A stretch of 63,497 bases of DNA, filler included, from Kipferlia bialata (Eukaryota), in assembly GCA_003568945.1 (NCBI GenBank). It is 4 parts of 4 records of this genome, joined end to end, with 100 filler letters (N's around TTAATTAATTAA, not from the genome) between each part and the next. Parts side by side here need not be neighbours in the genome. Positions count along the whole stretch, not along the records: positions 19,733 to 50,275 come from BDIP01000122.1; 3 more parts are not named here. One strand, 5' to 3'. Below, piece by piece: positions 19,537 through 46,936 of this stretch. The translations under genes were made by a program, and so were the position numbers. Each line of letters begins with the position of its first letter. Position 1 is the stretch's first letter. Below the pieces are notes generated by a model. The model was not told the origin of the DNA, made no database searches, and saw nothing but the letters and a program-made list of their open reading frames with translations.

Positions 19537-19632
19537 GTAAAGTCACCGTAGATATCTGTCTCTCCTGTATCTGGACGTTGTGTTCTCAGGGTTGTGGGGG
19601 GGGGGGGGGTTATATAGTGCTTACTATCCTGA

Positions 19633-19732
19633 NNNNNNNNNNNNNNNNNNNNNNNNNNNNNNNNNNNNNNNNNNNNTTAATTAATTAANNNNNNNNNNNN
19701 NNNNNNNNNNNNNNNNNNNNNNNNNNNNNNNN
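19633..19732. other. Artificial contig join (N-gap with TTAATTAATTAA stop linker)
   Basis: 100-nt gap with the linker at 19677-19688. Confidence 0.95.
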
Positions 19733-20132
19733 GTAATTCACCGCGCCACCCCCCCCCCCCCCCCCCCCCCCGTACCCTCTCCCACCATCCCATGTGTATA
19801 TCTCTCTCTCTCATTGATGATACCACCCACATAGCTACTCACACCATATGTACCCACTGTTGTAACCCACAGTACACTGCAGTATCCCTTTTTACTCTTT
19901 CTCTCTCTCTATCACTCAGTGAGTGACTCACTCTTTCTCCCCTCCCCCCCCCTCTCTACCTGCAATTTAACAGGCAGCACGGCACTCTCTCTTCCTGTCA
20001 CCAACCTACTCTCTCTCTCCCAGTGCACTGCATATCGTATTGTAATTACTGTCAGACCCAACGGTGCGCTCCAGGAGCCCCTTCTAAAGTTACTCTCTCT
20101 CTCTTTCCCTCTCTCCATCTCCTTATACATAG

Positions 20133-22216
20133 GCCAAATAGCGCACTGCAGGAGCCCCTCCTAGAGCTGTTGTCCTTCAGTGCACTGGAGTATGACTTCA
20201 TATCAACACTCCTAAGCAAGAGACAGGTATCACTCGCAAAGATCATTGGAGACACATAGTATTAGAGAGTTATACACTATTCTCCTCTCTTCTCTCTTCT
20301 GACCTACTTAACATGAGTTATTTACTATTCCCTTCTCTCTTCTTCTACCCCACCTCTCATTCTCAGAAGTAGATAGTTGTTGCACCATTTTAGAATTCAA
20401 CAATTTCCCCTAAATATTTCAATTATTCCTTCCCTCTCACCCTCAGGAGTATGTTGCCCTTGCAGCTGCATCCGACAGTGTCACAGAGGTAGGAGCATCA
20501 TTATAACATCATGACATTATTGCTACATATTTAAGTGTCTGTTGAGGAGAGAAACTGTGAGTTTCTATTCTAACAATACCGTATGTAACCCCCAAGGAGC
20601 CCACCTGGGCAGAGGTCGAGCAGCAGAACGCCATGGCACAGTTCAGCAACGCTAAGGGTACGTTGAATTTAACGTCATACGGAGTACGGTGTACAGTGTA
20701 CGGTCTCTTTTACCCCCCAGTACAGAGTCAGGCACCCAGACAGGGCAAGGCCAGGGCACTTGACCTGAGAGAGAGTGTGCCTGTGCAGAGGCCACAGGGG
20801 GGAGGGGGGATAGACACATTCAGAATTGCAGGTATGTTATAGGTTTATATGTACACTTCTTTACTGTGTTATCCTCTCTCTCTATTCCTCTCTATCTCTG
20901 CAGCTACCTCATTCAGGTGCTGCCACTATGTGCTGCTGACATTGTGCTGCAAATACACCCCCATCTCTCTCTCCCCCACTACACCCTTATTTCAGGTGCT
21001 GCCACTGCTGACATTGTGCTGCCAGAGGGCACGGAGCAGACATCGGTATGTTGACTATTATAGTGTTATTGTAACACTGTTATTGACAGACTGAGGAGAA
21101 CATTCATTCATTCCCAGACCGAGCAGTGTGACTCCATCTATGACATTATATTCCTGTATACACATATATAGTAGTGCTCCATATTATACTCATGGTTGTA
21201 TTACTAACATGTCCAGACCGAGCAGTACGACTCCATCTATGTCCCAGCCAGCACAGAGCCACACAGCATGGAGAGGTACTATTATAGATTGTATCATATA
21301 TCTAAGCATTAATACATATATCACATACATATATATGGTATAGCCAAGGAGAAGCTACTATTATATATGTAGTATATGCGTATATGTCCCAGCCAGCACA
21401 TAGCCACACATCATGTAGAGGTGTGGTATACTGTATTACATGGAGCAATGTGTATATAATACTATCTTTACTACCTACTAGGACCCCTCTCTCCTGCTCG
21501 CCCCCTGGACCCACGGGGCATTCCTAATGCGTATATATATCAATGTATATATGTATTCACATATGTACTCACTAATAGAACCCCCCTCTCCTGCTTCCCT
21601 TCTTGGACCCACGGGGCATTCCTAATATATATATTCCAATACATATGTTATTATTCCTATTCCTGTCTAAGAAAATATACTAAGTATAAGGACACCACTG
21701 TCCTGCTTTCCATTGTGGACCCACGGGGCATTCCCCCCAGAGGTCAAGAGCCTGAACCCCATGCAGAGCCAGGTATAGAACAGTATACTACTGATATTTA
21801 CTATATATTATATTGTGACTTTCGGGTTCATATGGGCTAGAATTCATGTTGTAACAGTATTGAATTTAGATTGCGCAATTCCTTAACCCCAGGTCTACAA
21901 CGATGTGTTCAACAACAGTGGCAACGTCATTGTGGCAGCACCAACAGGTATATAGAAATATACATACACATATATATATTATATCACCCACATATATGAA
22001 AGATGTGTATTGTCTTTGTGTTATATATGTATTATAGTAGATCTACCTATCTTCACAGTGGCAACGCCATTGTGGCAGCACCAACAGGTATGTGCATAAG
22101 TGTAAATACGGTGTTTATACTAGTGGCCTAGTATAGTATTCTATATATATATATCTGCATTGACGTGCCTTTCTTCATAGTGGCAATGTCATTGTGGCAG
22201 TACTAACAGGTAAGAC

Positions 22217-22266
<50 letters not shown>

Positions 22267-23070
22267 TCCCCCCTCCGCACCCACTGGTAAGACAAGGTAC
22301 CCTATCACTCGGTCGATGGTTTCACTACAGTACTCCTTCTCCCCCTCTACACCCTTATTGCAGGTGCCGGTAAGACCATGGTTGCCCTTCTTGCCATCCA
22401 TATGCTATCTTTCTCTCTCTCTCTCTCTACACCCTTATTTCAGGTGCCGGTAAGACCATGGTTGCCCTTTTGGCCATTCTGAGGGAGATCAGGGAGTCGA
22501 TAGGCATAGAGGAGGAGGGAGAGGGAGAGGGAGAGAGAGAGGGAGAGGCCATGGCCAGGGATGCCTTTGGCAACATGCTCATAGTGTGAGTGGATGTTGT
22601 ATATGTACTGTTAGTTAGTATTAATATACCCTATGTATTCTGTGTTACTAACATTCAGCTACATCTCCCCCATGAAGGCCCTGGCCCCATTGGTACTATC
22701 TCTCTCTCTGTATATGTATACTCCACCTTCCATATATATATATATACCGTCTAACACTTAGGTATATCACCCCCATGAAGGCCCTGGCCACTGAGATCAC
22801 TGGCAAGTTCCAGAAATCACTGGGGTATCTATCAGGTATATTAATGTATATGTATACATATGGATGATGAGAGAGAGATATATATTAACTGAGATCACTG
22901 GCAAGTTCCAGAAGTCTCTGGGATACTTATCAGGTACTACTACTTTTTAGATATATATATATAGTATAGAAATATATATATATTGAGGGAGAGAGAGATC
23001 ACTGGCAAGTTCCAGAAGTCACTCGGATACCTGTCAGGTACTATTTTATATATATTAAGTATATATATTA

Positions 23071-23106
<36 letters not shown>

Positions 23107-23885
23107 AGAGGGTGATACTGAGATCACTGGCAAGTTCCAGAAGTCACTGGGGTACTTATCAGGTATATTGATATGTAGATATATCAGACATTAGTCTGTA
23201 ACAATATATGAATATCGAGAGAGAGAGAGATATACTGAGATCACTGGCAAGTTCCAGAAGTCACTCGGATACCTGTCAGGTACTATTATATATATATTAA
23301 GTATATATATTAGTACATATATATATATATGTTGAGAGGGGGAGAGTACTGAGATCACTGGCAAGTTCCAGAAGTCCCTGGGATACTTATCAGGTACTTG
23401 TACTTTTCAATTGATAGTATATGGATCTCTGTTTCACTCTATTTGGTTCTGTGATGGAGGTGACAGGTGACACACAGCTATATATATATATATATGTCTC
23501 ATGTATATGCATATTGAATGCATATACCACTACTATGGAATATCTTACTATCAGGCTCTGTGATGGAGGTGACAGGGGACACACAGCTGTCAGGCATGGA
23601 ACTGCAGAAGGTACCCATGATTTCTCTCTCTCACTCACTCTCTCTCTCACACGCACACACTATCGCTCTCCCTTTTGCCCCCGGTGCTCCCATATTCTCT
23701 CTCTCTCCCTATACATCCCAAATTCCAGGTTAGTACCATAATGTACTCTCCCTCTCTTTCTCTCTCTCTCCCCCTCTACACCCTTAATTCCAGGTCAATG
23801 TCATGGTGTGCACCCCTGAGAAGTGGGACGTGCTGGGCAGGAGGGCAGGTATATATATATATGTATATATACATATTCTAGTGAC

Positions 23886-23921
<36 letters not shown>

Positions 23922-24200
23922 GGATGTGCTGGGCAGGAGGGCAGGTATATATATAGACATATTTGTATATATATATATACATATACTATTGTTATAGAGA
24001 GAGAGAGAGAGACAGAGAGAGAGGAGTGGGATGAGCTGGGCAGGAGGGCAGGTATTATACAGAAGTATACTCAAGTAGGAGGGTAGGGGTATATATATTC
24101 AGTGCATTCAGCCTTTGTATCTTTTTGATAGACCCCTGACCCCCAGTTGGAGAGGACAGCCCCCTCAACATACATACACACACTGTCTCTTTTCTATATG

Positions 24201-24234
<34 letters not shown>

Positions 24235-27200
24235 TCAGTATAGTATCTAATGTATATACCTCTCACCCCAGTTGGAGAGGACAGCCCCCTCAACAGACAG
24301 ACCCTGCTCATCCTGGATGAGGTAGATAACAATTTATATATATTCTAGTATATAGTGATATTGAAATATCTAGTATACATATGGAGTGATAGACAGACCG
24401 TACTCATCCTGGATGAGGTTAGTTATCTATGTTTATACCCCTTACCCTAGGTCCACCTCCTTGGCACTGGCAGGGGTGCAGTCATTGAGACACTGGTGAT
24501 GAGGACACTGCAGCACACAGAGATCACCCAGAAGCCTATCAGAAGTGAGTAGACAGTATATCTCTCTCTCTCTACACCCTTTATTCACACTCAGTCATGG
24601 CCCTCTCTGCCACTGTGCCCAATGTCTCTCTCTCTCTCTCCCCCTCTCTCTCTCCCCCTACACCCTTTATTCACACTTAGTCATGGCCCTCTCTGCCACT
24701 GTGCCCAATGTCAACGACGTGGCAGAGTTCCTCAGGATTCCAGGTTGGTTATACAAATACTCTTTACACTTCATTTCTGTGGTTACTGTTTAGAATATTT
24801 GATACATTAATGGAGTCAGAGGATCTCCACATAAGTATTATTTCTATGGTTTATCTACATTATTCTTCTAACCCTCAGAGACCTCTAGACACGTGTTTGG
24901 CCCCGAGTGGAGACCCATCCCACTGGCCCAGAGGTTCATAGGTATGTATATGTATTTTTGTATGTAATGATGGTGATAGTAGTATGTGATGGATATTTTA
25001 GTTAATCGAATGGACTGGTACATACTAGGCCTAGTAGTATTGTGTGTGTTTCTAAATGGTATTTGGTTTCTAGGACCCCAAGGCCACTCCCCATCAATAT
25101 AGAAGTCTATCTAATGACGTAGTATATCAATCTTTGTATCAATATGTATACATGTATGTATCTAATCCTCCAGGCGTGAAGGACCCCAAGGCCACCAACC
25201 TATTCGCACTATGAATCAGAATGCATGTGATATATATATATCACATATAGTTATGAGGGATACCATATGTATATATATAACCCCAGGTGTCAAGGACCCC
25301 AAGGCCACCAACCGCAAGATATATATATGTATTATTACTATTTATACTATTGTATAATTCATTTAGTGTAATGTATGTATCTAACCCCAGGTGTCAAGGA
25401 CCCCAAGGCCACCAACCGCAAGAGGGAGAGAGAGATGGCGAGGGAGAGAGACCCTATGGCTGAGGAGTCTGCGGCAGACAGAAAGAGAAAGGAGAGACAG
25501 CAGGTATATATGTATATATACTCTGTATATACCCATGTAGTATTTCCATTATATGACTATCAGAGAGAAAGGAGAGGCAGCAGGTATATTGTATATATTG
25601 AATATGAATACATCTTTGGGCGAGGACCAATGCATAAAGACACATGAATATATATGCAATATAATGATGTATATATGTGTGTATAAACATAATATCTCAC
25701 CCCCAGCGCATGGGCGAGGATGAGGTTATGGACTCCATTGTGCTGGACATTGTGAGGTATGGGTATATATATTCTCTATGTATAATAGTATCAGGTGTCC
25801 CTATAGATATCCATCTAGATACTACCGCAGTATATACTACTCTGACCCCCCCAGCGAGGAGGTCATGAAGGGCAGGCAGTGCCTATATACTATACTATAT
25901 ATGTAGTCACTGTGTATATATCTACGCACACGCACACCTCTCTTTCTCATATATACACCTCTAACCCCCAGGGAGGAGGTCATGAAGGGCAGGCAGTACA
26001 AATAGTGTATAAATACTAAGTGTCTATATTGATAGACATGTATAGCCATGTATTCTGAGTGTAAATGTCTCTAACCCCTAGGGAGGAAGTCATGAAGGGC
26101 AGGCAGTGCCTGGTGTTCCTACACAGCAGGGCAGGGTGAGTATATGTACGCCATATAGTACCTTTAGGAGTTAATACATTGCTATATCGATGTGTGATGA
26201 ACCCACGCGCCCGCAAAGATTTTATTTCTTTACATATTACTTTTCTATTTATTATAAATATTTATGTATGGTTACAGGGTATGTATGTGTCTTCCGCTCT
26301 CTCTATATATATACTGTATACTATAACACTAACAGCACCACGCCAGTAACTGATGGGCCATGATGACCCATACTCTCTCTCTCTCTCTCTCTCTCTGTTA
26401 GTCTTGTATACTATAAGTATACTAACATCAGCACTACCAACATGTGCCAGTACCTGATGGGTCAGGACATACCAGGCATAGACAACATAGACCCACACCT
26501 CAAACAGCAGAGATCAAGGTATACAAGTATATGATTTACTAATATTACACATACATATATATACACATACATATACAAATATATATATGTATATATACAT
26601 ATATATACATATATACATACATATACATGTATATGTATATATATTTTAGTAGTGCAGACACTGACCCCCAGGATAGCTGCCAAGTGCCGCAACCCAGACC
26701 TCGGACCACTCCTGCAGGTACTCCTCTCTCTCTCTCTCATGGACCCATATGGGTTTGCATACATATTTATACATTTTGTGTACATTGGTCTTTCAACAAT
26801 TGAACGTGAAATGTATACAAATATTCTTCATTTATCCTCTAGGAGGGCTTTGGGTGTCACAATGCACATCATACGTTGTATGTGATATATATGTACAGAT
26901 ATGTATACATATATATTAACCCCTAGGAGGGCTTTGGGTTCCACAATGCTGGTCTGGCCAGGAGTGACAGACTCAACGTGGAGAAGCTATTTAGGTGTGT
27001 CTATAACCCATATTATATAGAATGAGTGGGAATCCTTTCAGGTATTTTGTGGTACATATAGTGGTGCGTCTAGTGTATATATGATAGTGTGATAGTGGCT
27101 ACATGTCTGGCCAGGAGTGACAGGCTCAACGTGGAGAAGCTGTTCAGGTATAGAAGAGAAGGACCGATCATGGCATTACATATTTGTCCATAATGTGGTG

Positions 27201-27372
27201 CTTGAGAGGCTCATACGAATAACAGTTCATATATATATTGACGTGTGCATTCAAGTCGTTCAATTGGGGTGTTCTGGGTGTATTATCCTGCAACACACAC
27301 TCTCTCTATCTATATGTCCTCTTAACCATCAGAGATGGCGCCCTGCGTGTCCTGTCGTGCACTGCCACCCTA

Positions 27373-27403
<31 letters not shown>

Positions 27404-30400
27404 TCTAACCATCAGAGATGGCGTGCTGCGTGTCCTGTCGTGCACTGCCACACTCTCTCTCTCTCTCTCTATATATATACTTACCCCTAGAGATGGTGCC
27501 CTGCGTGTCCTGTCCTGCACTGCCACCCTGGCCTGGGGTGTCAACCTACCCGCACACACGGTTATTATTAGGGTAAGGAGGATATGTATATATGTAGCAT
27601 ACTACAGTACTCTAGTATGTATACAGAATACTAGTATAGTTGATATTATTTATATACCAGTAGGGTAATGTAATTCTTCTTTCTCTCTCTACAGCCTTGA
27701 ACTGGTAGGGTGCTACTTTCTCTCTCTCTCCCCTTTCTACACCCTTTTACCCTCAGGGCACCGATGTCTACTCCTCTCTCTCTCTCTCTCTCTCTCTACA
27801 CCCTTTTACCCTCAGGGCACCGATGTCTACTCCTCCGAGAAGGGAGGCATGATCGACCTGAACATCCTGGATGTCCAGCAGGTAATATTGATATTTAGTA
27901 CTCATACTAATAGTATTTCATGAAATAGTCATGTAATATATATACAATCGACGTGCAGCAGGTAATATACTTAATGTAGATGTATAGACACCGATATATA
28001 TATATATATACATATGCTATACGTATGTATATACAATATATGGAAGAGGCATGATCGACCTGAACATCCTCGACGTGCAGCAGGTATGAACACGCGGCAC
28101 TCACTATGTCTGAAAGAAGTATTTTCTGTTATCAGTAATTGCATGGTTTTCTTGTTGTGAGCCGGAACTAATGTCTTTTTACTAACCCCCAGATCTTTGG
28201 CCGTGCCGGTAGACCCCAGTATACACACATATATATATACATATATACTATATTCAGTGTATATGAGTATATATTTCTAACTCCCAGATCTTTGGCCGTG
28301 CCGGCAGACCCCAGTTCCAGGCAGAGGGATACGGAGTGCTCATCACAAAGCAGGTACAATAATTGTATAATATGTATATAATATACACATACACATATAT
28401 GGCTATTGATAAACACATATGTGTGTTACCGTTTTGCATGTCTGGTATATATATGTCCTGGGTCTAGGCAGGGAGATGGGGAGTGCTCATCACGAAGCAG
28501 GTGCATACACATAATGCTTCTCTCTCTCTCTCTCTCTTAGTGTGTATGTGTATGGAAGTATTGTTCTGTTTATGTATCGTTTCTCACCCCCCAGGCCAAG
28601 CTCCCCCAGTACATGAGACAGCTGCTGAACCAGGCCCCGCTAGAGAGTGTACGTGTATCAGAGTAGACTTTAGCTATGCGTGTTTAGTTACCTTTACCAT
28701 TTATCTGTTTACCCCTATTCCAACATTTCCCACCTGACAGACATCCTCAACGCATATACATATTCACATATCAATCATTTATACATGTATATAGTTACCT
28801 TAGTAGTATTCATGTAATCTCTACTACATATCCACTATATTCTATACTATAAACACTGACCTATAGGTCATGATCTCCCACCTGACAGACATCCTCAACG
28901 CAGACACTCTTTCATATTTATATCATGAATATCTAATGAATCATTGATATGAGTATATATATAATGTATGCTTACCTTCAGGTCATGATCTCCCACCTGA
29001 CAGACATCCTCAACGCAGAGATATATACATACTGAGATTGTACTAGGGAACATCAGGTGTGTTTCTATAATGATAAATATTTATGATCACGTGTACACTC
29101 TTGATTACATGTTTCTCCATTTATATTTATGTCTTTCCTCTCGCCATATTCCATATGTAAGAACTGGAAAACTTAATAGTACCCGACTCTCTCTCTTCCT
29201 CTCACCCCCAGCACTCTGGGAGAGGCCGTAATTTAGATAATGATAAATATTTATAAAACTCTATAGTACCTGACTCTCTTTCTCTCTCTCTCTCCTATCT
29301 CCTATCGATCTCACCCTAGTACTCTGAGAGAGGCCGTGACCTACATGAGCAGCTCATTCCTGGATGTCAGGTACTATGTCTATCTCTCTCTCTATGTATT
29401 TATATATTTATGTATTTATATTAGTATATTTATATATCTATATTAATATATACATATGAGTTGCTCATTCCTGGACGTCATGACATCTATTAATTCCCCT
29501 CTCATTCTGCTAGTATCTGTCTTTCTCTATATATACACCTCTTACCCCCCAGGATGAAGTACAACCCCCTCTTCTATGGGTCATCATGTACTTCTCTCCC
29601 TCTCGTTATAATGCCAATATGTATATATATATATATATACACCTCTTACCCCCCAGGATGAAGTACAACCCCCTCTTCTATGACTCATCATGTATTTCTC
29701 TCTGTCTCTGTCTCTCTCTCTCTCTCTCTCTCCCGTATATCTTATCCTCAGGATGAAGTACAACCCCCTCTTCTATGGGTCATCCTGCACAGGGGTGGCC
29801 AGGCAGTCATCCATGGACAGGTATGAGATATATTATTATGAGATACTTGTCTAATTTAATATAGTAGTATGTACTAGTTTCATTCTCTTTCTTAGTATAT
29901 AAGCAGGGGTGGCCAGGCAGTCATCAATGGACAGGTATACTGCATATATATATATATGCATACACGTAAAGTTGAATGGGAGTATATATACTCCTATTGC
30001 AAGTGTATGTGTTTGTTGAGGTGGCCAGACAGTCGTCGATGAACAGTGTAGCTGTATACCGATATTGTATACAGTTTCTATTCTTTTCTTTGTAGCTTTC
30101 TCCCCCCATATATCCAGGCTCCCATTATGTCAAGTACATACACACACACATACACATATCTATATATACATACTCTTCGGATACGTCTCACTCTCAGACT
30201 GCGTGAAGTGTGCCGGGCTGCCATTGAGAACCTATATGATATTGTATACCTTTTGTATTATTAGATATTATCTCTTGTGTGGATATACCTTCCTTACACT
30301 TAGACTGCGTGAGGTGTGCCGGGCTGCCATTGAGAACCTGGTCAGACTCAGGATAGCATCCTTCAACCAGAAGGCAGACAGTACGTGGATAGTATATAGT

Positions 30401-33400
30401 ATATAGTATAGTGTATATAGATATATAGATATATACTCAGAATAGCATCCTTCAACCAGAAGGCAGACAGTACGTATAGAGTATATATGTAATATAGTGT
30501 ATAGTATAGTGTATATCTTGATATCTCTATGTATGAACTCAGGATAGCATCATTCAACCAGAAGGCAGACAGTACGTATTCAATGATTTATGTTTCTATT
30601 ACATTGTATATACAGTATCTATACTTGCAATTTATGATTCACTCGACAGGGTGGCCTCGCAGTATCTGTAGTCATCAAATCTACCTTAGTATATCTACTA
30701 TACTACTATATCTAATACCAGTTGTGTCCACCACCGAGCTGGGCAGGGTGGCCTCGCATTATACAATTATACAATATATGTATATATGCATATATTCATT
30801 TGTGTATATCTAACATCAGTCGTGTCCACCACCGAGCTGGGCAGGGTGGCCTTTCAGTGTATATATACAAATTGTTACATAGAGTATATGTATACATATG
30901 TATACTCTCTAATACACTAACACCAGTTGTGTCCACCACCGAGCTGGGTAGGGTGGCATCACAGTACTATGTGGACCCAGAGAGTGTGGCCAGGTACTAT
31001 TATTTGTAACACTAACAGTGTGCATATTGTAATGTATCAATTTGTCTATGAGATAATCGTGTTTATGTCTCACCTCTAGGTTTGCCTCTGCCTTCAGCGA
31101 GTGTCACTCCAATGATGGAGTCCTGTCCTACAAGAAGCTGCTGGCTCTATTGGCTACAAGCAAGGTACATGTATAGCAGTCAACTCTTGGCAATACAGAT
31201 AAATATATACGGATAGATTGAAGAGTTTGCCTTTTCATTATTAATAATCTTGTACCGTACTATAGTTATATGTCCCAGCTGTTTGAGTCCCTTCGAGAAA
31301 GCTCTATCTGACCACTTCTTTACTGACATATATACAGATATTTCTTTATGCTCACTTCAGGAGTTTGAGTCCCTGCGTGTGAGGCGGGAGGAGCAGGGGG
31401 AGATTGACTCACTGTCAGGGTGTGTGGACAGAGTCAAGGAGACGTTTGAAGGTATACATGCACTTAGCTTAGTATACGTTTATATATATGTGTGTATATA
31501 CAGGTAACAATATGTTGTTCTAACCCCCCAGGTGGCTCTGACGGTGGAGGTGGCAGGGGCAGGAAGAGTGGCAAGGGCAAGGGGAAGCAGCTACTCAAGC
31601 AGGTTGGCCGTGTATTTATCCTAGAATTGATAGTCCACATGTATTCTACTATCTATGTATTTGTATATGAGTATCTGCCTCTACCTCAACTCTCTGGTAG
31701 GCCAGGGAAGGGCAAGCACAAGGACAAACTAATATATGTAAACATGTGTATCTGTAAATAAATTCTAATTATTATATATATATACACCTTATCTCAGCTC
31801 TCGGGCCGCCCCGGGAAGGGCAAGCACAAGGGCAACAGAGAGCTGTGTCCATATGACCTGGACGGGGGGATAGAGGAGTACTCACACGAGCACAAGGTAT
31901 ACAAACTGCTCTGGACTGTCTGAATTGTATTTGTTCCAGTCCTACTCATATCTTATAATGCAGGTGTTTGTCCTCGTCCAGGTCCACATATCAGGAGGAG
32001 ACCCTACAACAGGTATCGCACACGTGTAGAATATTTCAACGTGTGTTCACCGTGCTGAAGATCTCTTTTGATATAGTGTGAAACTCTAACCATAAGGTTC
32101 CCTCATCAGCGACACCAACTACATCATGCAGAATGCCCCCAGGATCCTCAGGGCCATGTTTGAGATTGCACTCAGCATCCAGGTATAAATATATATATAT
32201 GTATATATACATAGGGTATATGTAGTATAGTGTAGTATACATATATATATATATATATATATGTATATGCACCCAGGATCCTCAGGGCCATGTTTGAGAT
32301 TGCACTCAGCATCCAGGTATAATTATATATATATGTATATATTGAGGGTATATATATATATATATGTAGCATGTATATATATACGTGTATACTTAGGATC
32401 CTCAGGGCCATGTTTGAGATTGCACTTAGTATTCAGGGTTATATTTATATATATATATACGTATTTGTATTTAGGTAATATACATATATACCGAGACATG
32501 TGTGTTGGATTTGCCTATTGTATCATAGCCACACTTATGTCTTATCCTAGCTCCCCCACACTGCCGTGAGCCACTTACTGCTGTGAGACTTATGTATGTA
32601 TTATCAAACACATGTAATTCTGCGCATGTATTGTACTAATATGTATCCTACTTACAACAGCTCCCCCACACCGCTGTGAGACTACTTGAACTGGCCACAG
32701 CAGTGGAGCACAAGACATGGCACTTCATGAGTCCTCTCTGGTGAGATTGTATATATATACAAATGATTATATATCTCTATATCTGTATATTGGGAGAGAG
32801 TACGTATATATTAGTGGAGCACAAGACGTGGCACTTCATGAGTCCATTGTGGTACCGTGGCTATATTTGTACTATATATGGCATGTACGTGTATATAGTG
32901 ACGTACACTTACTCTCTAGGCACGTTGTTGGCACCAACCGACTGACTGGAGATGTGGTCAGAAGACTCGAGCAGCACAGTGCAGTCTCACACATGAGGTA
33001 AGATATAAATGCTAATGTGTATACATATATGTATATATGTGTGGATATGTATATGGAGCAGCATAGCGCAGTCTCTCACATGAGGTAAGATATGAATGCT
33101 AATGTGTATACATATATATATATGTGTGTGTGTGTGTATATGTATATACATATATATGTGTGTGTGTGGGATATGTATATGGAGCAGCTTCGTATCACAC
33201 ATGAGGTATTTTTGTATATGGTTTGTTATATATATATATATATACAAAGTAAATTTAACTCTTCTATATAGTATATATTAGTAGTATATATAGATAGTAT
33301 GATATATACTCGAGCAGCACGGCGCAGTCTCACACACGAGGTAACACTAGTATAGTATTTTGTGTACACCAAGGGTTTCCTATTCTTTCAACATCTCACC

Positions 33401-35382
33401 CCAAGACTTGACAATGTCGAGAACATCCTGGCACTGGACAACCAGGAGATCAGGACAATCACAGGTATGAAAGAGAGACCTTTAATCACTACTTGCTAGT
33501 TTTTATTCAATACAATTTCACTAAAACTTTACATCCTGATTCATTGGACAACCAGGAGATCAGGACAATCACGGGAAGTGAGTGTAGTATTGGAGATGCC
33601 ACGGATTTCTAATCCCAGGTCTCAAGGACGTTGGTCCCTTGGTGAAGAGGGCAGCCATGCGCATTCCAAGGTAACCCTTAGAGGATACAGATATATACAC
33701 TAATGCTATCCAAATATATGTTAGTCTATCATTTTTATATTTGTATGTGTGTCATATCTGGCAAGTAACTTGCATTCCAAGGTAAATACGGGATTGAGTG
33801 TATAATTTCTATAGTATATATGGTTATATACACAGTTTATTACTTGTATCAAGAGGGCTTGTATCCGATGGTCAAGAGGGCAGCCATGTGCATTCCAAGG
33901 TACATATGAATACAGCATTCTATATAAACCTGTGCAGTTAGAGTAAGTAAATTGCATTTCACTGTATTTGCTACCCCTCACCTCCAGACTGGAACTGATT
34001 GCCGAGGCCAGGCCTGTGTCGTGCAGGATCTTGAAGGTTATATCAAAGTATTGATTGACACTATATGATATTGACTGGCGTTACTCACCCCCAGCTAGAT
34101 GTTGTGTTGAGGTGCACCTTTGAGTGGGAGAAGAGACTGCACGGGTCGAGGTACCTATATATATATAGGGATATATATGTATATATATATAGATTAGGCT
34201 TCACTGGTCGTGAGGTTATTCACTTTCATATCTATGTTGGTCTTTGAGTTTGTAGTTTGCAATGGATATATGTGAATTTGTTCCTTTGAGGGGAAGAAGA
34301 TACTGCACGGGTCGGGATATGAATGTTCGACACATTGTATATGTAGTACATACTATATTCATCTTAATAGTGTTTATAGTGGCATATATGTACACTACTG
34401 ACTGTCAGTGTGGGCTTCTGGGTCATGGTGTATGACCCCATCAACTCTATACTTCATGATAAAGAGTACATGTATATATTGATTTATATATTTATAATGG
34501 TATCTAGTAGTGCATAACACGTATACTAACTCCTTCAGTGTTGGGTTCTGGGTCATGGTCTATGACCCCATCAACTCTGTGCTGCACCACTCGGAGAGGG
34601 TCATGTTTGACAAGGTATTATTGATAAGGATATATACTATACTCTGTATAGAAACATGAATTATGTGTTATAAGTATAGTATATATATTACATTATATGT
34701 ATTCTACTCTGTGCTGCACCACTCAGAGAGGGTCATGTTCGACAAGGTATTTCTCCTATACGCTATAATAAGACAGTTACGATTATGTATATTTCAGTAG
34801 TTCTATTTATACTCTGTGCTGCACCACTCAGAGAGGAGTCATGTTTGATAAGGTGTGTAACTCTCTCCCTCTCTCTCTATATTCACATATACATATACAC
34901 TCTGTCTATACACTAACAATAGGCCATGGCCAATAGCAATGTCACCCTCCCCCTTGCTGTCAGACTGGACCCCGATGTCTATGACGGGGAGTACCCCAGG
35001 ACACTGTATGTGTGGAGCATTCCAGGTACTGTGTTAGTCTTACATACCCGTGAGTACAGATGTATAATTCCAGGCAACCTCTGCTCTCTATATAGTGGCA
35101 CACTCGTAGTATGGGGCATTTTCCTCTCCCTCTACACCCTTTTCCCCGACCCTACACCCCTCTTAATCACACCCTACCCCCTCTAACCCCAGACAACTGG
35201 GCTGGCAAGGGCACACTGCAGAGCATAGAGGTCAACCTCACAGGTATGTGTTGGTGTTATATATCCACGATTTCAATTAATAACAATAAGCACACACACA
35301 TTTATATATATACACAATTATACATATATATAGATATAGATAAGAACTGGAATGTAAATCTCATAGAGGTCAACCTCACAGG

Positions 35383-35413
<31 letters not shown>

Positions 35414-37301
35414 TGTAGTATATATATATATGTGTGTGGAGAGATGTGTTTAGTCTATTATTGATGTCGTTGTATATATGTCAAAGAGGTCAACCTCACA
35501 GGTGGGGTTATGAGATTGTATATATTGTATACATAGGTCATATTGACATTGTGTATAGTAAATGAGAGTTGTTGTGCTAGTTTGTGCCATTTTCACCCTA
35601 ACCCCAGGCCTCATTGTGCCTGAGGAGTCTGGGGAGTACACCAATGTCCCCCTGTTCAGCCCTCTGTCCAAGAGGGCTATGCACTGGCCAGAGGTATATA
35701 TAGGAGTATGAAGTGATCCTATATATATATATATATAAATATTAATATAATGAATACTATACTATGTATGTCCCTCTGTTCAGTCCTCTGTCAAAGAGGG
35801 CTATGCACTGGCCTGAGGTATTGAAATATATTGTGCATTTGTATATCGTTCATTAGTCTAATCGTCCATCCTCACCCCCAGGCCGAGTCTCCGTTTGGAT
35901 TTGACTTCAATCACTATATATACGTCACACATATATATAGGTATACTGTAACATATATGAGTGTATATACATGCTAAAACTGTACTTACCCCCAGGCCGA
36001 GTCTCTGTTTGGGTTTGACTACTTCAACCCCCTCCAGACATCATACTTCCACAGGTTCGTAAGTATTTAGTGTATATAGTATGTATATAGGTCATATATA
36101 CTATGTGGATATGATACCGACACTGATACTGACTACTTCAACCCCCTCCAGACGTCATACTTCCACAGGTAAGGCCATACAGTATGTGTATATATACCAT
36201 GTATGTAGTATATATGTATTTGCACTCTTCAGTGTCAGCCCCCTCCAGACATCATACTTCCACAGGTACGGACATATAATAGAGTATATAGTATATAGTG
36301 CACTGATAGTACATATACCATGTACACAATATATGTTCTTCCACAGGTTCAACTTAGGACTACCTGTTATACATATTCATTCACCATGGCTGCTAACACT
36401 CCGAGGGCAACGTTATCATTGCCTTCAGTATTGCATTACACTATATATACATCGACAATTGATGTATTATCAAAATATGTATTGTATGAATTGTCATACT
36501 CACACTAGGTGCTACCACTCCGAGGGCAATGTCATCATTGGCGCACCCACAGGATCTGGAAAGGTTGGTAGACATATAACTTCTATTGCGCATGAGTACC
36601 ATATGATATACATATTCTGGTAATATGTTTATGGTTGACGTCTATGGTTATGTATCTATGGTGCACAATGTATTGGCACTGTTCTCGCTGATATCCCAGA
36701 CCATTGCTGCCGAGCTGTGTCTCCTCCAGATACCCATCTCTCTCTCTCTCTCTATCTCTCTCTCCATATATANNNNNNNNNNNNNNNNNNNNNNNNNNNN
36801 NNNNNNNNNNNNNNNNNNNNNNATATATATATATACTGTTCTTGCTGATCCCAGACCATTGCTGCCGAGCTATGTCTGCTCCAGATGCTCAGAGATCACC
36901 CACAGAGGAAGGTATGACATACAGTGTGGAGTAATACACCTAGGTGAAGAGTGGTGTATTATACATATTGCACTTTCTGCTAACTCTTAGGCCGTCTACA
37001 TTGCCCCCCTCAAGACCCTTGTCACAGTATATCTCTAGTATTTTTAGCATGTCTCTATCCTCGAGTACATATTAAGCATTACCTTCTAGGCCGTCTACAT
37101 TGCCCCCCTCAAGACCCTTCTTGTCAAGTGTATAGTGTATATATGTGTGTGTGATTGTGTTAACGTTCCTGATTGTGCTTTCTCCAAACTCTTAGGCCGT
37201 CTACATTGCCCCCCTCAAGACCCTTGTGAGAGAGAGGGTCAACGACTGGCAGAAGTTCAGAGCGGTGGGGGCTAGCCTAGTTGAGATTACAGGTGAGAGA
37301 A

Positions 37302-37334
<33 letters not shown>

Positions 37335-40226
37335 AGACCCTTATTGTCAGGTGATGTCCTCCCTGACTCCGATGCCCTTAGGACTACACTTCTCTCTCAC
37401 TCTCTCTCTCTAGACCCTTAATATCAGGTGATGTCCTCCCAGACTCCGATGCTCTGAGGACTGCATCTATCCTAGTGACCACACCCGAGAAGTTCGATGC
37501 TGTCTCAAGGTATATATATATATATATATCATATACCATACAAGTATACTCATGTATTGTTCTTACAGTATGAGTGTATATATACATATATAGTCATTGT
37601 ATCCATGCTAGTGACAACACCCGAGAAGTTCGATGCTGTATCCAGGTATAACACAAAGTATATAGTCATCTTCTGTAAAAAGTTCCTATATATATAGTCA
37701 TTGTATCCTCCTAGTCACCACCACCGAGAAGCTGTGTCCAGGTACTTACTTATCCCGTGCGTCTACCACCTCTTTCTATTTTTCGAAAACTACTCCTATC
37801 TCTGTTGACTATTCTCTACCCAGCGGCAGTGTCATACCCAGGAATCCACATTATATTGAGTCCAAGTGTTTATTACTGTTTCAAATTACTGTATATACTA
37901 TAACCCATAAATACCATAATATATATGGCTTACTATCTCTACCCCCAGGCACTGGCAGACCAAGCGCTTTGTGCAGCTGGTGGGACTGGTCATCATCGAT
38001 GAGGTGTGTAGTATACAGTGTACATTGTATTAGTATATGCAGTGACTATAGTATATATATAGTGACGATAGTGTACACAGTACTATATGGTTTGTGCAGC
38101 TGGTGGGACTGGTCATCATCGATGAGGTACACAGTATGTACTCTGTGAATACATTTAGTAATATACATTGAACGCTCTAGTAGTATACTAGGTGGTTTGT
38201 GCATGCCTAAGTACTATATATGCACAGTAGTGGATGTATTTGTGCCCCCTACTGGGCACAGGTACTAGCAATGATTTGTATTCAGAATATGGTGTATAGT
38301 ACTAGAATAGTATATAATGAATGTAGACTCTCTTCTCACCCCCAGTGCCACCTCCTTGGTACAGACAGAGGCCCAGTGCTGATATGTATATTGATATGGA
38401 TATAGTCAGATATACATATATATGTAGTATGTACTATTTACTATTTGTATGTATATGTACATCTTACACTCAGTGCCACCTCCTTGGCACAGACAGAGGC
38501 CCAGTGCTGGAGAGCATAGTCTCAAGACTGAGGTACATACATTGTATACTGTATATACATGCATTCCTCTTGCTTATGAAATATATGCTATGCATAGTGT
38601 GGAGATTTCATATATATAGATATAGAGTCCATACTCAGGCATCCATCCAACCACTGAAACTATACATATAGTACAATATGATGTGACCAACCTTACCCCC
38701 AGGTTCATCAGTGACATGTTTAGGTCCATACCCATATGAATATAGATATGTTTTGTATAATGAATATAAATGTGAATATAGATGTATTTTGTGTGTAGTA
38801 AGTCTCTGTATGTCACTATTATAACTCACCCCCAGGTTCATCAGTGACCGCTATGCAGAGGCGCACAAGATCAGATTCCTAGGTATGCATACAGTGTGTG
38901 ATGTGTGGAACAGTAGAAGAGTTTTGGGTTGTTATAGTATATTTGGGTCTATTCTATGAACAGTATTCATGGATATAGAGAGGCACACAAGATCAGATTC
39001 CTAGGTGAGAAGAGAAGGAAAGAGAACCCCACACATTGAAACACACTCTCTCCTGTACTCTCTCACATGTTTGTGTCGTCTAAGCGTCTAAGCGTCTGAC
39101 CGTAGGACTAACCACCTCTGTGGCCAACCCCCAAGATATGGCAGACTGGCTAGGGGTAGCCGACACCCATACATTCAACTTCCCCCCTAGTGCCAGGCCA
39201 GTGTCCCTGGAGACACACATTCAGGTATGTCCTAATANNNNNNNNNNNNNNNNNNNNNNNNNNNNNNNNNNNNNNNNNNNNNNNNNNNNNNNNNNNNNNN
39301 NNNNNNNNNNNNNNNNNNNNNNNNNNNNNNNNNNNNNNNNNNNNNNNNNNNNNNNNNNNNNNNNNNNNNNNNNNNNNNNNNNNNNNNNNNNNNNNNNNNN
39401 NNNNNNNNNNNNNNNNNNNNNNNNNNNNNNNNNNNNNNNNNNNNNNNNNNNNNNNNNNNNNNNNNNNNNNNNNNNNNNNNNNNNNNNNNNNNNNNNNNNN
39501 NNNNNNNNNNNNNNNNNNNNNNNNNNNNNNNNNNNNNNNNNNNNNNNNNNNNNNNNNNNNNNNNNNNNNNNNNNNNNNNNNNNNNNNNNNNNNNNNNNNN
39601 NNNNNNNNNNNNNNNNNNNNNNNNNNNNNNNNNNNNNNNNNNNNNNNNNNNNNNNNNNNNNNNNNNNNNNNNNNNNNNNNNNNNNNNNNNNNNNNNNNNN
39701 NNNNNNNNNNNNNNNNNNNNNNNNNNNNNNNNNNNNNNNNNNNNNNNNNCCATCAAGCAGCACAGCCCCAGCAGCCCAGTGATTGTGTTTGTGTCATCAA
39801 GGTATCATATATATATATATATATATGTAATACATTATATTCATATATATCGTTATTGTTATCAAGCAGCACAGCCCCAGCAGCCCAGTCATAGTGTTTG
39901 TATCATCAAGGTACATGATATATATCTATGTATTACAAGGTATCCATATATATAGCTATACTGCCATCAAGCAGCACAGCCCCAGCAGTCCAGTCATTGT
40001 GTTTGTGTCGTCTAGGTACACTATATATATCATATATATATATGTAATACATGGTATATATATATACTTGTTTGTTATAATGTCATCAAGCAGCACAGCC
40101 CCAGCAGCCTAATGATTGTATTCGTATCCAGTAGGTATCATATATATATATGTTATATGGTATCCATTTGTATAGTCGTTATACTGTTACCAAGCAGTCC
40201 AGTGATTGTGTTCGTATCCAGTAGGT

Positions 40227-40260
<34 letters not shown>

Positions 40261-43200
40261 ATACATGGTATCCATTTGTACAGTCGTTATACTGTTATCG
40301 AACAGCACAGCCCCAGCAGTCCAGTCATAGTGTTTGTATCCAGTAGGTAATGTATATATATGTATATATTTGTGTATTACATGGTATCCATATATATAGC
40401 TATACTGCCATCAAGCAGCACAGCCCCAGCAGCCCAGTCATTGTGTTTGTGTCATCTAGGTATCATACATATATATCATATATATATATGATAATAGACA
40501 TTTATATATATATACTCTGTAAGCAGCACAGCCCCAGCAGCCCAGTGATTGTGTTTGTGTCATCAAGGTAGAATATCTTGTGTGTGTACATATCAGTATT
40601 ATATGAATGTGTTACAGATGGTAGACTCTTACCTCTAGGCGTCAGACCAGGCTCACTGCCCAGGCTCTGATTGCATTCTCGTCCATTGATGACAGTGCCC
40701 AGGGGCTAGGTATGCATTATTATATATATATATAGTATAAGTAGTACACAAGGATATAGTACTCCTTGCATTCTCATCAATCGACGACAGTGCTCAGGGG
40801 CTAGGTATATATATTCATACAAATATATGTGGAATAGTGTATACCGTATACATTTGTACTGTACTCATTGCATTCTCGTGCATCGACGACAGTGCCCAGG
40901 GGCTAGGTATATATATACATACATATATATGTGGTAGATATACTGTATACTTTGTACTGTACTCATTGCATTCTCATCCATCGACGACAGTGCCCAGGGG
41001 CTAGGTATGATCATATACATACATATATATGTGGTAGATATACTATATACATTTGTACTGTACTCGTTGCATTCTCGTCCATCGACGACAGTGCTCAGGG
41101 GCTAGGTATAACTATGGTATATGTACTCAATACAATAGTATTCCGATTGACATAATGGCACGGTTGAATATTGACTTTCAAACGAGAAGCGTCCTATTTG
41201 CTCACCTCCAGGCTTCGATGTCATTGCCAAGCTGCCCAGAGACGACCTACAGGTAACGATGGATTTGTCGTGTATATAGTATAGTATCTATAGTCATAAT
41301 GGACCCTGGTGCCAAGCTATATCATATACAATACATATTCATACATACATACTAATATATACCTATTTGTGACCTATACTCACTCAGATGGAGTCCGACT
41401 CCATGCTGGACCCCGATGCCAAGAGGTGTCTGCAGTACGGTATCGGTCTGCATCATGCAGGTGAGGAGTGTATATATTCATATATATATATCCATATACA
41501 TATATATCCATATATATATACACACATACATATATATACATATATCTATGTAGCAGTATATAGATATGTATTAGTAAACATTGCATACATATATCCAGGC
41601 ATGACCACTGGTGACAGGTCCCTTGTGGAGTATATATATGGAATATAGTTACTGTATATAAATANNNNNNNNNNNNNNNNNNNNNNNNNNNNNNNNNNNN
41701 NNNNNNNNNNNNNNNNNNNNNNNNNNNNNNNNNNNNNNCTTTGTTATATTCTTATATCCAGGCATGACCACCGGTGACAGGTCCCTTGTGGAGAAGCTCT
41801 TCCTCAGCCAGGTAACTCTCTCTCTCTCTCACTCTCTCTCACTCTCTCTTTGAGAAGCTATTCCTCTGCCAGGTTCTCTCCCCCCCCGTTTTCTTCCTTG
41901 TCATTATGTCATTCCCACCTGCACCTTTTCTCTTGCTCTGTCCTCTCATGATTCCTCCCTTCTCAATACCATATATGTGACACAATGTAGCACATCAGGT
42001 TTGTTAATGCCATCTCCACCCCTCCTCTTCCTCCTCTCTCTCTCTCTCTTCTAACTCTAGCGCATCAAGCTAGTCATTGCCACCTCCACCCTGGCCTGGG
42101 GTGTCAACATGCCCTCATACTGCGTCATTGTTAAGGTATGCATAAGTATATACATGTACTACATATATATATAGATGTAGGAGACCATTGTAAAGGTATA
42201 CATGGTAATACTCATTTCGTGTGTATAGCTATACTTTTCATATGTACTTTTCTATGACTACTATTCCCTCATACTGGTAGAGATAAGTATTCAATGCACA
42301 GGTAAAGAAGTGACATTTCAGTCTCATACTGGAATGCTCATATCTTTATGTTACATACTTCACACTAACACCAGGGCTGCCAGTACTTCGATGGAGCCAC
42401 CAAGCGCTACACCAACTACTCTGTCACAGACATCATGCAGATGATCGGAAGAGCCGGTAGGCCTCAATTCTGTCAGGTATTAATGGAAGAATCGTAGTTC
42501 AACCATCTCAGAAATTTCAAGAGTCTTAGTATTCCAGTGACACTATAATACTAATAATAGTAATTTAGTGTTATACATTTTACCTCATATCCAGGAGCGC
42601 CGTGAGCGTCTGATTCAGAGACTGGCCATGCAGAGGGGAGTCAGTGATGTCAACAAGTGGCTGCAGAGGTATTATTATCAATTACTGTATGTAATACCAT
42701 ATATATATTGTATACTATATATATATATATATTGTATATATTGTAAATATATATATATATATATATTGTATACTATTTGTACTGAGTGCTCACATTAGCA
42801 TCGACGTGGGAGAGCTACTCGCTGCCCACCCCGACACTTACGTATATGGTTATGTATACATTCACTTGCATGCTTTATGTTTGTGTCTAATCCACCAGCA
42901 TTGATGTGGAAGAGCTCCTTGCTGCCCACCCCGAGCCCGAGTCTGTGGCCGTTGTCCTGTGTCACAACCCCAGCAAGCCATTCTTCAGAAGGTAATTGGA
43001 GTTGGGGTTCATTTCCCTATGTATCTGCAGATCGCATTACACTAACCCTAGATTCCTCTATGACCCTTTCCCGGTTGAGTCTGCCATGAGTGGCAAGCTG
43101 GAGGACACACTGGTGGCAGAGATTGCATCAGGGCTGATAGGTATGCATATTGTGAGTATATATAGCACACGGGACTGATAGGTTGGTAGTTGAAAGTGTA

Positions 43201-44974
43201 ATACAATTACCCAATCTACACAGTCACTCTTCCTCCACACCCTTATATCAGCCTCTGTCGATGACCTGAGGGACTGGCTCCACTACACATTCTACTACAG
43301 GTATGAGGATATATGGACTTAGTGCGGCTGTCCTACACCCTTAGTGCCAGTGCTTCTATTGCCTTCACAAGCGTTGATACTCTCTGATATATGGTCGTGT
43401 CTTTCTGACTCCCTAGGCGTGTCCCCACCAACCCTGGCTACTACTCGCTCATTCCCGAGGACATTGGTACGTAATTGACGAGTCTTGACTTATCAGGACA
43501 ACTGTTGACTTCCTCTGACTTCCTAGGATATGATTTGTCCGAGGGTTATGGCATTGACGGCAAGAGAGACATTATGAGAGAGGCTGGGGACGCCCATGCT
43601 ATCATGAGGTACTCATTGTCTCTCTCCCCCCCTCTCCCTCTCACTCTACACCCTTAATACCAGAGCCAATGAGGCCATTGACATTCTCTCTCTCTCTCTT
43701 TCTCTCTCTCCCCCTCTACACCCTTAATACCAGGGCCAATGAGGCCATTGACATTCTGACCGAGGCCAGGTGCATTGACGTCATCAACAACACCGAGTTC
43801 AGGGCAACCTCGCTAGGTGTGTAAGTTATTCAGTACATTGTATGCTTATATAATACATATATACGTATATGTATACAATATATATATTCATTGACGTTAT
43901 CAACAACGTAGAGTTCAGGGCCACATCTCTAGGTATATCGAATACAATGTATATGTGCTTAATGGTAGACATATACTTCACTTGAATTATGTGCCCAGGC
44001 TGCCTCTTGCAAAATCTGAATGTATCGGTTAATCCTTGTATATAACTGACTCTAGGTCACCTCGCAAGCCTGTTCTACCTCAACCACACCAGTGCCGTCA
44101 TGCTGCACGAGTGCCTGTTCAAGAGGTAACGCTATATAGATATACACTTCATTATTAGTACTATAATTATTCATAAAGTGTATATATGTATATGTATCGA
44201 GAGGTGTCATTGTATTTGAGATATATATGTATACCAGTGCCGTCATGCTGCACGAGTGCCTATTCAAGAGGTAACACTGTATGTATGTATATATCTATAT
44301 ATATAGAGAGAGAGAGAGTAAGAGGGGGGGTCATTGTATATATACACCTTGTCTGTATATACCAGTGCCGTCATGCTGCACGAGTGCCTGTTCAAGAGGT
44401 ATGTATATACAATAATATATATATGTATGTATAGAGAGCGAGAGAGAGAGAGAGAGAGAGAGACGTGTCATTGTAGATGTGTACATGTATATATATATAC
44501 CAGTGCCGTCATGCTGCACGAGTGTCTGTTCAAGAGGAATAGTATACTTGTAAATTCGTATATGGTTGTGTTTCCATGTGTGAATATATGGATAATCTAT
44601 GGATTATAGACAGATGTCTCATCCCAGCCACCCCTACCGCTACCCCCTATGTCTGCCACCAGAAAGCGTTCAATATATAACTATTTGTTGCTAGATTGAC
44701 ATGTTCTTACCCCCAGCCACCCCAACCGCTACCCCCCCCCCCATGTCTGCTGACTGTTACCATGTCCCCACCAATATATATATATATACTAATGTAATAT
44801 AATAATAGTATAGTAATAATAATATATATATATATGTATATCCTTACCCCCAGCCATCCCAACCGCTACCCCCCCATGTCTGCTGACTCTGACTCTGACT
44901 ATGTCCCCACTAACTGGGTCACTGCATTGATGGAGGCAATGGCAGCATGTGCAGAGTTCGAGCAGGTTAGTCAC

Positions 44975-45013
<39 letters not shown>

Positions 45014-46903
45014 TTGTACTGATATGTATTACTTCTATGGGTCACTGCCTTGATGGAGGCCATGGCTGCATGTGCTGAGTTTGAACAGGTTGGACACACA
45101 CACTCTCTCTCACTATATATATGTGTGGATATGTATTACTCCTATGGGTCACTGCCCTGATGGAGGCAATGGCAGCATGCGCAGAGTTTGAGCAAGTGAG
45201 ACTATATGTATTTACATATATGTATATATACGTTTGTGCCCACCAACTGGGTCCCTGTACTCATGGTGGCAGCATGGGCTGAGTTCGAGCAGGTACCACT
45301 CTCTCTATATATAAATACATATTTGTGAGTGATATATGTGAGTTCGAGCAGGTTAGTATCTGTCTCTATCAGTGTATGTAGGGTCATATGTATTTCTTCC
45401 ATTCTAACATTCAGGTCCCTGTGAGGCACAATGAGGATCTCTCTCTCTCTCAACAAGCGCATATATATGCATATATGTATATCTAGTACTCACCCCCCAG
45501 GTCCCTGTGAGGCACAATGAGGATATACAAATATACCCTCAACATATTCAGTATTAAGAGTACTATACGTTATGTGTATCTGTGTATACTAACTCCTCAG
45601 GTCCCTGTGAGACACAATGAGGACAACGACATGGAGCACATGGTGGCACAGGTATGGGTATAGATATATGTATAACTAGTGTATATATACATAGTGTTTT
45701 CACGTAGTATAGGGTAGGGCAACGACATGGAGCACATGGTGGCACAGGTAGATATGTAATACATATAGAATATGCAAATATACTCTTAGATATCGACATT
45801 ATTATATGTATCTAGTATCTCTAGATATGTCCTCACCCCCTCAGGAGCTGAGGCAGACCAGAAGGGCCCCCGATGGCACTGATGTGTTTGAGGGGGGGCT
45901 CAGGATGGTACCCCCAGGGTGCCTGCCACCAGGTATTACTACTACTCTCTCTCTCTCTCTCCCTCTGTCTCTCTCTTTAGATAGATATACTACTATGTAT
46001 GTACGATCATTTATGATTACGCATATATATGTGAGTGATGGTACCACCAGGCTACCTGCCACCAGGTATATATGTGAATACATTAATGTGTGTACTTGTT
46101 ATATATTAGTACAAAAGTTGGTACCTTCTCATTTCAGCTACCCTTCCTGCAAGACCCACCTTCTCCTCCAGACCCAGCTCTCTCTCTCTCTCTCTCTCTC
46201 CCTCTCTCTCTAACTCCTTAGGCTCCCCCTCCTACAAGACACACATCATTCTTCAGACCCAGCTATGGCACATATATATACACACAATATATTATAAATA
46301 TTATATAATATTATATAATATACTGTTGTATACCTCATATATATAATATAATATTTAATATTATACTGTTGTATACCTCACTACAGGATCCCCCTCCTAC
46401 AAGACACACATCCTTCTCCAGACCCAGCTGTCCAGGGCACACACACACACATATATATACACCATATAATTATACTACTTTCCTCCTAATCTAAGGTTCA
46501 CCGTCTTATAAGACCCACATCCTTCTTCAGACCCAGCTGTCCAGGGCACTCCCAGGGGGGGCACCAACCATGCCATGCGCCGATTTCTGGTGAGTAGTTC
46601 ATCATAGTGTATAGAGTATAGATAGTATGGATGCGGTACTCCCAGGGGGGGCACCAACCATGCCATGCGCTGATTTCTGGTAAGACTGTGAAGGACTATT
46701 CTTCTTCTTCTCTGGCTTGATCTGGCCTCTGTCATGGACCAGGCGTCAATCTCTCTTTCTCTCTCTCTCTCTCTCGATATACCCTAATATCAGGCTTGAC
46801 CTTGCCTCTGTCATGGACCAGGCCGTGAGACTGAGTGCAGCTGCCATCGAGTGTGCAGCGGGGTGCAGACTCAGTGACGACAGGATTATAGGTATTATAC
46901 ATG

Positions 46904-46936
<33 letters not shown>

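Follow-up and report, generated by a model that had tools for sequence, protein, structure and literature searches.

The window analysed here is a stretch of 63,497 nucleotides from Kipferlia bialata, in which four contigs are joined by N runs with the TTAATTAATTAA linker (19633-19732, 50276-50375 and 60973-61072). On its plus strand, at 20133..50046, lies a gene that comprises 86 exon parts in the model we built and encodes a two-cassette Ski2-like helicase with ASCC3 as its best match. ASCC3 is also the best solved-structure match; the bit scores are 796 (ASCC3), 721 (Slh1) and 675 (Brr2), an assignment made by score only and without a tree. A full-length homolog search returned the query alone. 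Exon 39093-39224 matches P0001, which carries the database name KIPB_000961 (Kipferlia bialata) and maps exactly onto 58 exons. The public gene model begins just 3' of a split exon at 28982..29056 (plus strand), and the 5' part of our model was put together manually. Its frame stays open as far as 28982, it fits the spliced pieces, and it aligns to homologs over about 770 residues. The split exon has 16 extra bases in its middle with a 5-base direct repeat. Homologs are continuous across the split site, an intact copy looked for in the assembly was not found, and only 1196 coding bases separate the exon from the upstream start of a 5099-nt spliced contig; the exon may be a collapse, a null allele or a case of unusual processing. 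Introns throughout the window have a branch-like motif (YTAAC, CTGAC, CTCAC) 4-8 bases before the acceptor AG. A similar close spacing is characteristic of Giardia and Trichomonas introns.

Each exon part of the helicase gene was aligned to both of its flanking introns. The search recovered 136 partial exon copies at 59 of the 86 exon parts, and a control of 340 non-adjacent pairs gave 0 segments. Seven segments of one array, whose live exon is probably in an N gap, were excluded, leaving 129 copies for analysis. Among the 62 upstream copies, 47 reach the acceptor and none has a donor; among the 67 downstream copies, 58 reach the donor and none has an acceptor, so that 0/129 have both splice sites and every copy sits on the side of its exon where it does no harm. 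GT or AG is kept in most copies (65/72 and 45/54), 35 of the 129 are identical to the live exon, and some others are decayed. There are 80 copy groups, 50 of them with a lone copy. The copies are half exons, untranslated and removed with the intron. Near-tandem loci reach 4.2 per kb in the helicase contig versus 0.15, 0 and 0.8 in the other three, and their density in the four contigs tracks (TA)n content. The largest array of end copies (39750..40570, plus strand) has eight units, is mosaic and includes a TCA/AGT serine switch; the N gap ahead of it probably holds the live exon. The public model's exon at 39761-39801 is a piece of the first visible unit of this array, taken from an internal AG. 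A live exon with four end copies occupies 40639..41105 (plus strand).

The array that was singled out in a preliminary description of this DNA belongs to the live exon at 22762..22835 (plus strand, as are all features of this array), which is 74 nt long, agrees with a spliced contig with 0 differences and aligns, as a check on its frame, to the 'YVAPMKALA' motif region of homologous helicases. Five end copies follow it, each consisting of the last 43-46 bases of the exon and then a GT donor: copy 1 at 22888..22933 (5 silent differences), copy 2 at 22995..23037 (5, directly joined to a (GA)n run), copy 3 at 23117..23162 (3), copy 4 at 23234..23279 (5) and copy 5 at 23348..23393 (5). All five units are present as described, but there are only four copy types, because copy 4 was recently duplicated from copy 2 (99% identity over 94 nt). 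The spacers within 22762-23393 have the common layout of a (TA)n run, then a (GA)n run, then the junction, and share little sequence; the intron stretch after copy 5 is unlike these inner spacers. Upstream, at 22659..22686, is a start copy of the same exon with an intact acceptor AG and no donor. It ends exactly where the end copies begin (gap 0) and is skipped by the spliced joint 22585/22762. A start copy of the next exon (23446..23479) has its acceptor AG changed to TG and two differences, both at Gly third positions; the next live exon itself is at 23555..23610, and the spliced contig runs into 23555 from 22835. The preliminary description had missed both the start copy and the fact that 'mirage' is a known repeat type, and had been unaware that this array is one of 80 copy groups in the gene.

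On exact re-reading, the codons reported for the live exon end (from AAA to TCA G|gt) and for the five copies were reproduced, and all six give one 14-residue translation. Between the five copies and the live exon there are 23 synonymous changes and, as had been claimed, no non-synonymous one; 20 of them are at third and 3 at first codon positions. All 8 distinct variants are silent (P about 1e-4 under a neutral expectation that weights transitions 4:1). At their 5' end the copies equal the live exon exactly over 26 nt (23 nt in copy 2), and all variation therefore falls in the last seven codons. The statement that every difference is silent is true of this array but does not extend to the whole gene, where trimming the junction ends leaves 196 synonymous differences and 69 replacements. 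Pooled over the 129 copies, dN/dS is nevertheless 0.09, far below 1, the outcome that the preliminary description had named as supporting evidence; it is 0.105 untrimmed and 0.14-0.18 when each variant is counted once.

Between copies and live exons, differences are found at 120 of 615 4-fold sites (0.195) and at 56 of 2521 0-fold sites (0.022), about a ninefold excess per site of silent over replacement differences. The 0-fold/4-fold ratio is 0.11 (about 0.075-0.17 by bootstrap over 58 exons). Within trinucleotide context the odds ratio is 10.6 with no directional spectrum, and this matching excludes a context effect on mutation as the source of the bias towards third positions. Copies compared with one another give 0.17 (33 variants at 146 4-fold sites, 22 at 585 0-fold sites), and lone copies give 0.13 (0.08-0.23; 48/236 or 0.203 at 4-fold sites, 26/957 or 0.027 at 0-fold sites). 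Arrays of three or more copies have the lowest ratio, 0.05, and the array at 22762-23393 has 0. The 59 distinct amino-acid changes have a mean BLOSUM score of -0.61 versus -0.53 for neutral change, and there are 4 stops; since the changes look neutral, the copies decay now and were constrained earlier. Among the silent changes that take several hits are Ser TCA/AGT (two arrays), Arg CGC/AGG and Leu TTG/CTT, and three silent states are found at 5 of 338 codons, two of these in the array at 22762-23393. From splice site to junction, silent differences fall from 0.27 through 0.17 to 0.13 in start copies, with a weak gradient in end copies. Intron flanks are mostly unalignable, even where the exon part is identical, and flank similarity shows little relation to silent divergence (rho -0.17 and 0.01). 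At 21482-21622, two start copies of exon 21691 have 5' parts that are several amino acids off yet in frame, as if from alleles differing in a variable region.

The array is supported by contigs from one sample over the stretch compared, 20100-23040. One DNA contig (record 5 of set X1) covers 22562-23024 with 0 differences at a depth of 378, spanning copy 1 and the greater part of copy 2 along with the live exon; copies 3-5 lie outside the compared stretch. Its neighbours have depths of 394 and 412, and three X1 contigs (1245, 1281 and 503 nt) match the window without difference across several copies. X1 may be the sample behind the window, in which case it is an independent assembly rather than an independent sample. 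No other letters that would mark a second allele are seen in X1 over 20100-23040, in a table that can miss short pieces, and a degenerate pattern of the exon end had 0 matches among metagenome contigs. The second set, X2, is a putative RNA run (the assignment is a guess), and its GT..AG joints show splicing. Its spliced contig has no other letter over 22762-22836 and runs on into the exon at 23555. Over copies 1-2, X2 depth is nil in contigs from which rare forms drop out, and within the same limit only live codons were found when copy-specific codons were sought in RNA, a check that the preliminary description had proposed. In these contigs, splicing of the host mRNA is normal over 20100-23040 and at the joint to 23555, and six start copies with an intact AG are passed over by spliced pieces within 3 kb. 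An internal AG shared by the five copies would give any micro-exon 3n+1 bases, which puts KSLGYL out of frame. The copies lack the combination of own acceptor and donor, frame and presence in mRNA that marks cassette or mutually exclusive exons.

Twenty-three exons have both start and end copies. In 19 of them the longest copies tile the exon within 8 nt, and across the 23 the overlap is never more than 5 nt. Independent junctions would give 6-7 such exons (P<5e-5), and 12 are expected if the mid-exon preference is kept (P=0.0007-0.003); the median gap under stricter nulls was not significant (P=0.07-0.08). Start and end copies co-occur at chance level (23 exons, with 19.2 expected; P=0.12). 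This points to one-sided events that happened separately at a common site, and gives no support to a single half-full-half event. An extra spliceosomal intron in the donor allele was also rejected as the cause of the tiling; junctions at GT or AG (7/47 and 14/58) are not enriched. Dinucleotide repeats are modestly enriched at junction flanks (0.37 versus 0.23). A junction is shared in 20 of 28 arrays; the shared site would be either a break hotspot or the best microhomology to intronic repeats. Four-gamete conflicts occur in 16 of 38 site pairs, 14 of the 16 from one array. Amino-acid changes in end copies rise from 2/206 in the nearest to 9/163 in the farthest (P=0.013), while in start copies the gradient is reversed, though not significantly (13/126 nearest, 4/91 farthest, P=0.13). 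The splice dinucleotide is off the diagonal in 0/30 nearest and 10/30 farthest copies; some of these 10 'lost' sites are small-indel shifts rather than point mutations, and their loss could reflect selection against competing sites. Sign tests for an age order over 30 arrays were not significant (P=0.08-1.0). In 20 of 27 arrays the inner spacers resemble one another more than the terminal ones do (P=0.019), and spacers are mostly unalignable to the live intron.

Histories of such copies were simulated with whole-unit events, a fixed array size, lethal replacements and 200 individuals. In the first population grid, 4 of 32 settings matched the data, all of them with high diversity and capture from other haplotypes; the low-diversity runs were short and noisy (ratios 0.33-1.66). 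Push-out of one copy by other haplotypes gave ratios of 0.11 and 0.08, and at theta 0.3 it gave 0.249 at 4-fold and 0.027 at 0-fold sites, close to the values of the lone copies. In simulation, only donor alleles with a silent divergence of about 20% matched the lone-copy signal, and a silent diversity of about 0.2 between alleles is deduced from these models. The proposal that each copy came from a diverged functional allele thus fits all copies, lone ones included (0.08-0.11 simulated). We infer the mechanism itself, since no second allele is seen, from the observed geometry, splicing, constraint, tiling and mosaicism of the largest array.

We give slightly better than even chances to the reading that the copies are former coding halves, displaced by out-of-register repair from a homolog allele about 20% silent-diverged. 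On the other allele, the partner joined to a break or template switch near mid-exon would be a (TA)n or (GA)n run of the adjacent intron, likely through a few bases of microhomology. The donor would supply the new live half, and the old half would stay behind in the intron. Later repairs could then anneal at an existing copy and add more units with the same junction. Selection would purge duplications of a whole exon and tolerate half copies, since the acceptor and donor that lie nearest to each other are the ones paired by the spliceosome. The copies would afterwards decay neutrally and be replaced some 40 times as often as a single site mutates; where an array has three or more copies, part of the signal may come in addition from their conversion back into the live exon. 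A broader version, which we hold more tentatively and at somewhat less than even chances, is that break or switch points are fixed in mid-exon, that repair from the homolog repeatedly pushes the old half into the intron and so stores population alleles in a locally homozygous genome, that haplotypes about 20% apart at silent sites recombine, and that this mechanism accounts for mirages in highly polymorphic eukaryotes. In the accessible parts of published surveys, metamonads are described as lacking Ku and DNA-PKcs, and fornicates as lacking classical end joining and Rad51A while keeping Dmc1 paralogs (PMC8516963); in the hypervariable fungus Schizophyllum commune, crossovers are confined to conserved exons in parents 14% apart (PMC4209137). 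These two make repair from a diverged allele plausible, and neither is a test of it. The Schizophyllum crossovers differ in being in register and leaving no copies, and the diversity was measured there and is inferred in Kipferlia. The unalignable flanks mean that the repair model needs either an added exon-only homogenisation or a very fast intron turnover, and the near absence of copies in neighbouring genes, a contrast outside its reach, speaks against it. The split exon at 28982-29056 looks like the broken intermediate that the repair model predicts, and a collapse is possible as well.

A different history would confine everything to one chromosome, breaks in the live exon being repaired from its own copies as in a silent-cassette system. 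In chicken immunoglobulin pseudogenes, trypanosome VSG and Borrelia vls, unexpressed partial copies are under selection because they are recombined into an expressed site; those cassettes diversify a protein, whereas the Kipferlia copies keep a housekeeping helicase unchanged. If copy-to-live repair were far commoner than the reverse, selection would see the copies indirectly and purge replacement changes. A wider simulation grid partly overturned our first rejection of such recycling for larger arrays: in clonal simulations with 3-5 copies, copy-to-live conversion at 100-200 and live-to-copy conversion at 3-30 times the mutation rate gave ratios of 0.04-0.13 in 6 of 7 settings, four of the matching settings having a 4-fold divergence of 0.18-0.26. 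The low ratios of the arrays of three or more copies, the zero at 22762-23393 and the likeness of inner spacers also favour it. Yet balanced or slower exchange, in all directions, gave 0.50-1.14 in 54/54 single-lineage settings, lone copies, which make up most groups, failed in 18/18 settings (0.42-0.69 simulated versus 0.13 observed), and conservative changes are not enriched among the replacements. Neither half spans the shared junction, and the copies could therefore not bridge a break there. Periodic recombination into the coding position, the other origin offered in the preliminary description, is accordingly possible in arrays of 3-5 copies and fails for lone copies, which could be remnants of recently shrunken arrays, a case outside the simulations; we regard recycling as unlikely overall. 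Still less probable in our judgement is a non-allelic donor, that is, a diverged paralog, a homeolog or a hybrid partner species, with template switching during loss of heterozygosity. The switches between serine codon families and the introns that do not align point to deep divergence, and the enrichment is specific to this locus; three silent states at some codons together with four copy types would, on the other hand, require at least two donors. No other protein shares the 90% cluster of P0001, and no paralog pieces are among the X1/X2 matches, both weak tests.

That the copies form an ordinary mirage minisatellite, namely neutral snapshots of an earlier exon with a silent bias left by selection on the live one, agrees with the structure (described in the accessible parts of PMC3087553) and with the identical and decayed copies. 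For a copy that leaves an evolving exon and is not touched again, the expected ratio is 0.5 at best. Hence at least 0.5 is predicted both against the live exon and between copies, where 0.11 and 0.17 are observed (P=1e-13 and 4e-5), and slower 0-fold mutation in introns is not seen on context matching; we reject this explanation for the helicase gene and consider it very improbable. Two further explanations have, in our estimate, hardly any chance each. One is that the copies are translated, as parts of alternative or trans-spliced exons or after programmed DNA rearrangement. Most copies do keep GT or AG, and exon 28982-29056 lacks an intact form even though the 5099-nt spliced contig begins upstream of it; however, the spliced contig equals the live exon with 0 differences and X2 has no depth over copies 1-2, the shared internal AGs give 3n+1 micro-exons, junctions are not enriched for GT/AG, and stops and frameshifts are present in copies. 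The other is an assembly artefact in which haplotypes or strains were strung together. The support comes from short-read contigs only, matched up to 23040, and a collapse could underlie the split exon at 28982. Against this, the three X1 contigs cross several copies without difference at depths of 378-412, the 26 nt shared by the live exon, copy 1 and copy 2 are short for a chimera if 31-letter words were used (itself inferred), and a merging of alleles cannot make intron-to-mid-exon junctions.

The repeat type is already known as mirages, earlier work on which in amphioxus is reportedly that of Canestro et al. 2002; the Kipferlia copies are ordinary in kind and unusual in degree and implication. 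According to the available portions of two reports, amphioxus mirages occur in Adh3, the globins BflGb6 and BflGb9, troponin C and PGBD5, are harmless to splicing and have a mechanism called unclear (PMC3087553, PMC3902484). As in those repeats, the Kipferlia copies are tandem duplications across an exon-intron boundary, either boundary can be duplicated, and most units keep AG or GT. They differ in that 59/86 exon parts of one protist gene are affected, mostly by lone copies, and in that the exon parts are protein-constrained and start and end copies tile the exon; identities of 81-100% are reported for BflGb6 (PMC3087553/PMC3902484, in part), whereas Kipferlia spacers are mostly unalignable to the live intron. 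The word 'synonymous' has 0 mentions in the main texts of PMC3087553 and PMC3902484 as far as these are accessible, and the supplements of the former hold repeat alignments that could show a silent bias. The Kipferlia genome paper counts 124,912 introns in a draft from short reads, and its accessible part does not contain 'duplicat', 'allel', 'heterozyg' or 'ploid' (PMC5874029). A literature search not aimed at mirages, and thus a weak test, found no account of such copies in Kipferlia or of silent-biased boundary copies; nor, within the same scope, did it find the density, silent excess and tiling described.

Break repair also moves units between alleles and yields mosaic arrays in the human minisatellites MS32, MS205 and CEB1, through interallelic conversion and synthesis-dependent strand annealing (PMC2599865, in part). 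Their units are non-coding, whereas the Kipferlia unit is half an exon, so that the coding history of the donor is readable. Template switching by FoSTeS/MMBIR and, reportedly, one-sided invasion produce duplications with junctions at a few bases of microhomology, but exon halves from the other allele are not described in the accessible part of that account (PMC4888836). Intron gain by tandem duplication, after the Rogers model, was rejected: the spliced form keeps the original donor, and the junctions are not enriched for GT/AG.

If displacement from diverged alleles is true, one genome would reveal the hidden population diversity and recombination record of a free-living Giardia relative. 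If right, it would also make the lone-copy ratio test (below 0.5) applicable to any genome with mirages and would give mirage repeats an origin that can be tested. With six intact upstream acceptors skipped in 3 kb, the gene is in addition a natural splicing experiment; the skipped acceptors suggest that splice-site pairing is exon-centred here, in a lineage with almost intron-free parasitic relatives. The copies can mislead gene prediction.

Elsewhere in the window, at 61399-61670 on another contig, an exon has two end copies: one differs by a silent change at a third position and the other, in the frame that we read, by a Glu-to-Asp change; the pattern is hence not confined to the helicase gene. 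A single near-tandem copy of an exon edge lies at 5604-5724 in a minus-strand gene. Similar exons about 3 kb apart at 16226-16352 and 19415-19537 apparently represent a duplicated domain or gene, and the P-loop region, judged by eye, suggests a guanylate kinase-like gene at 62425-63430.
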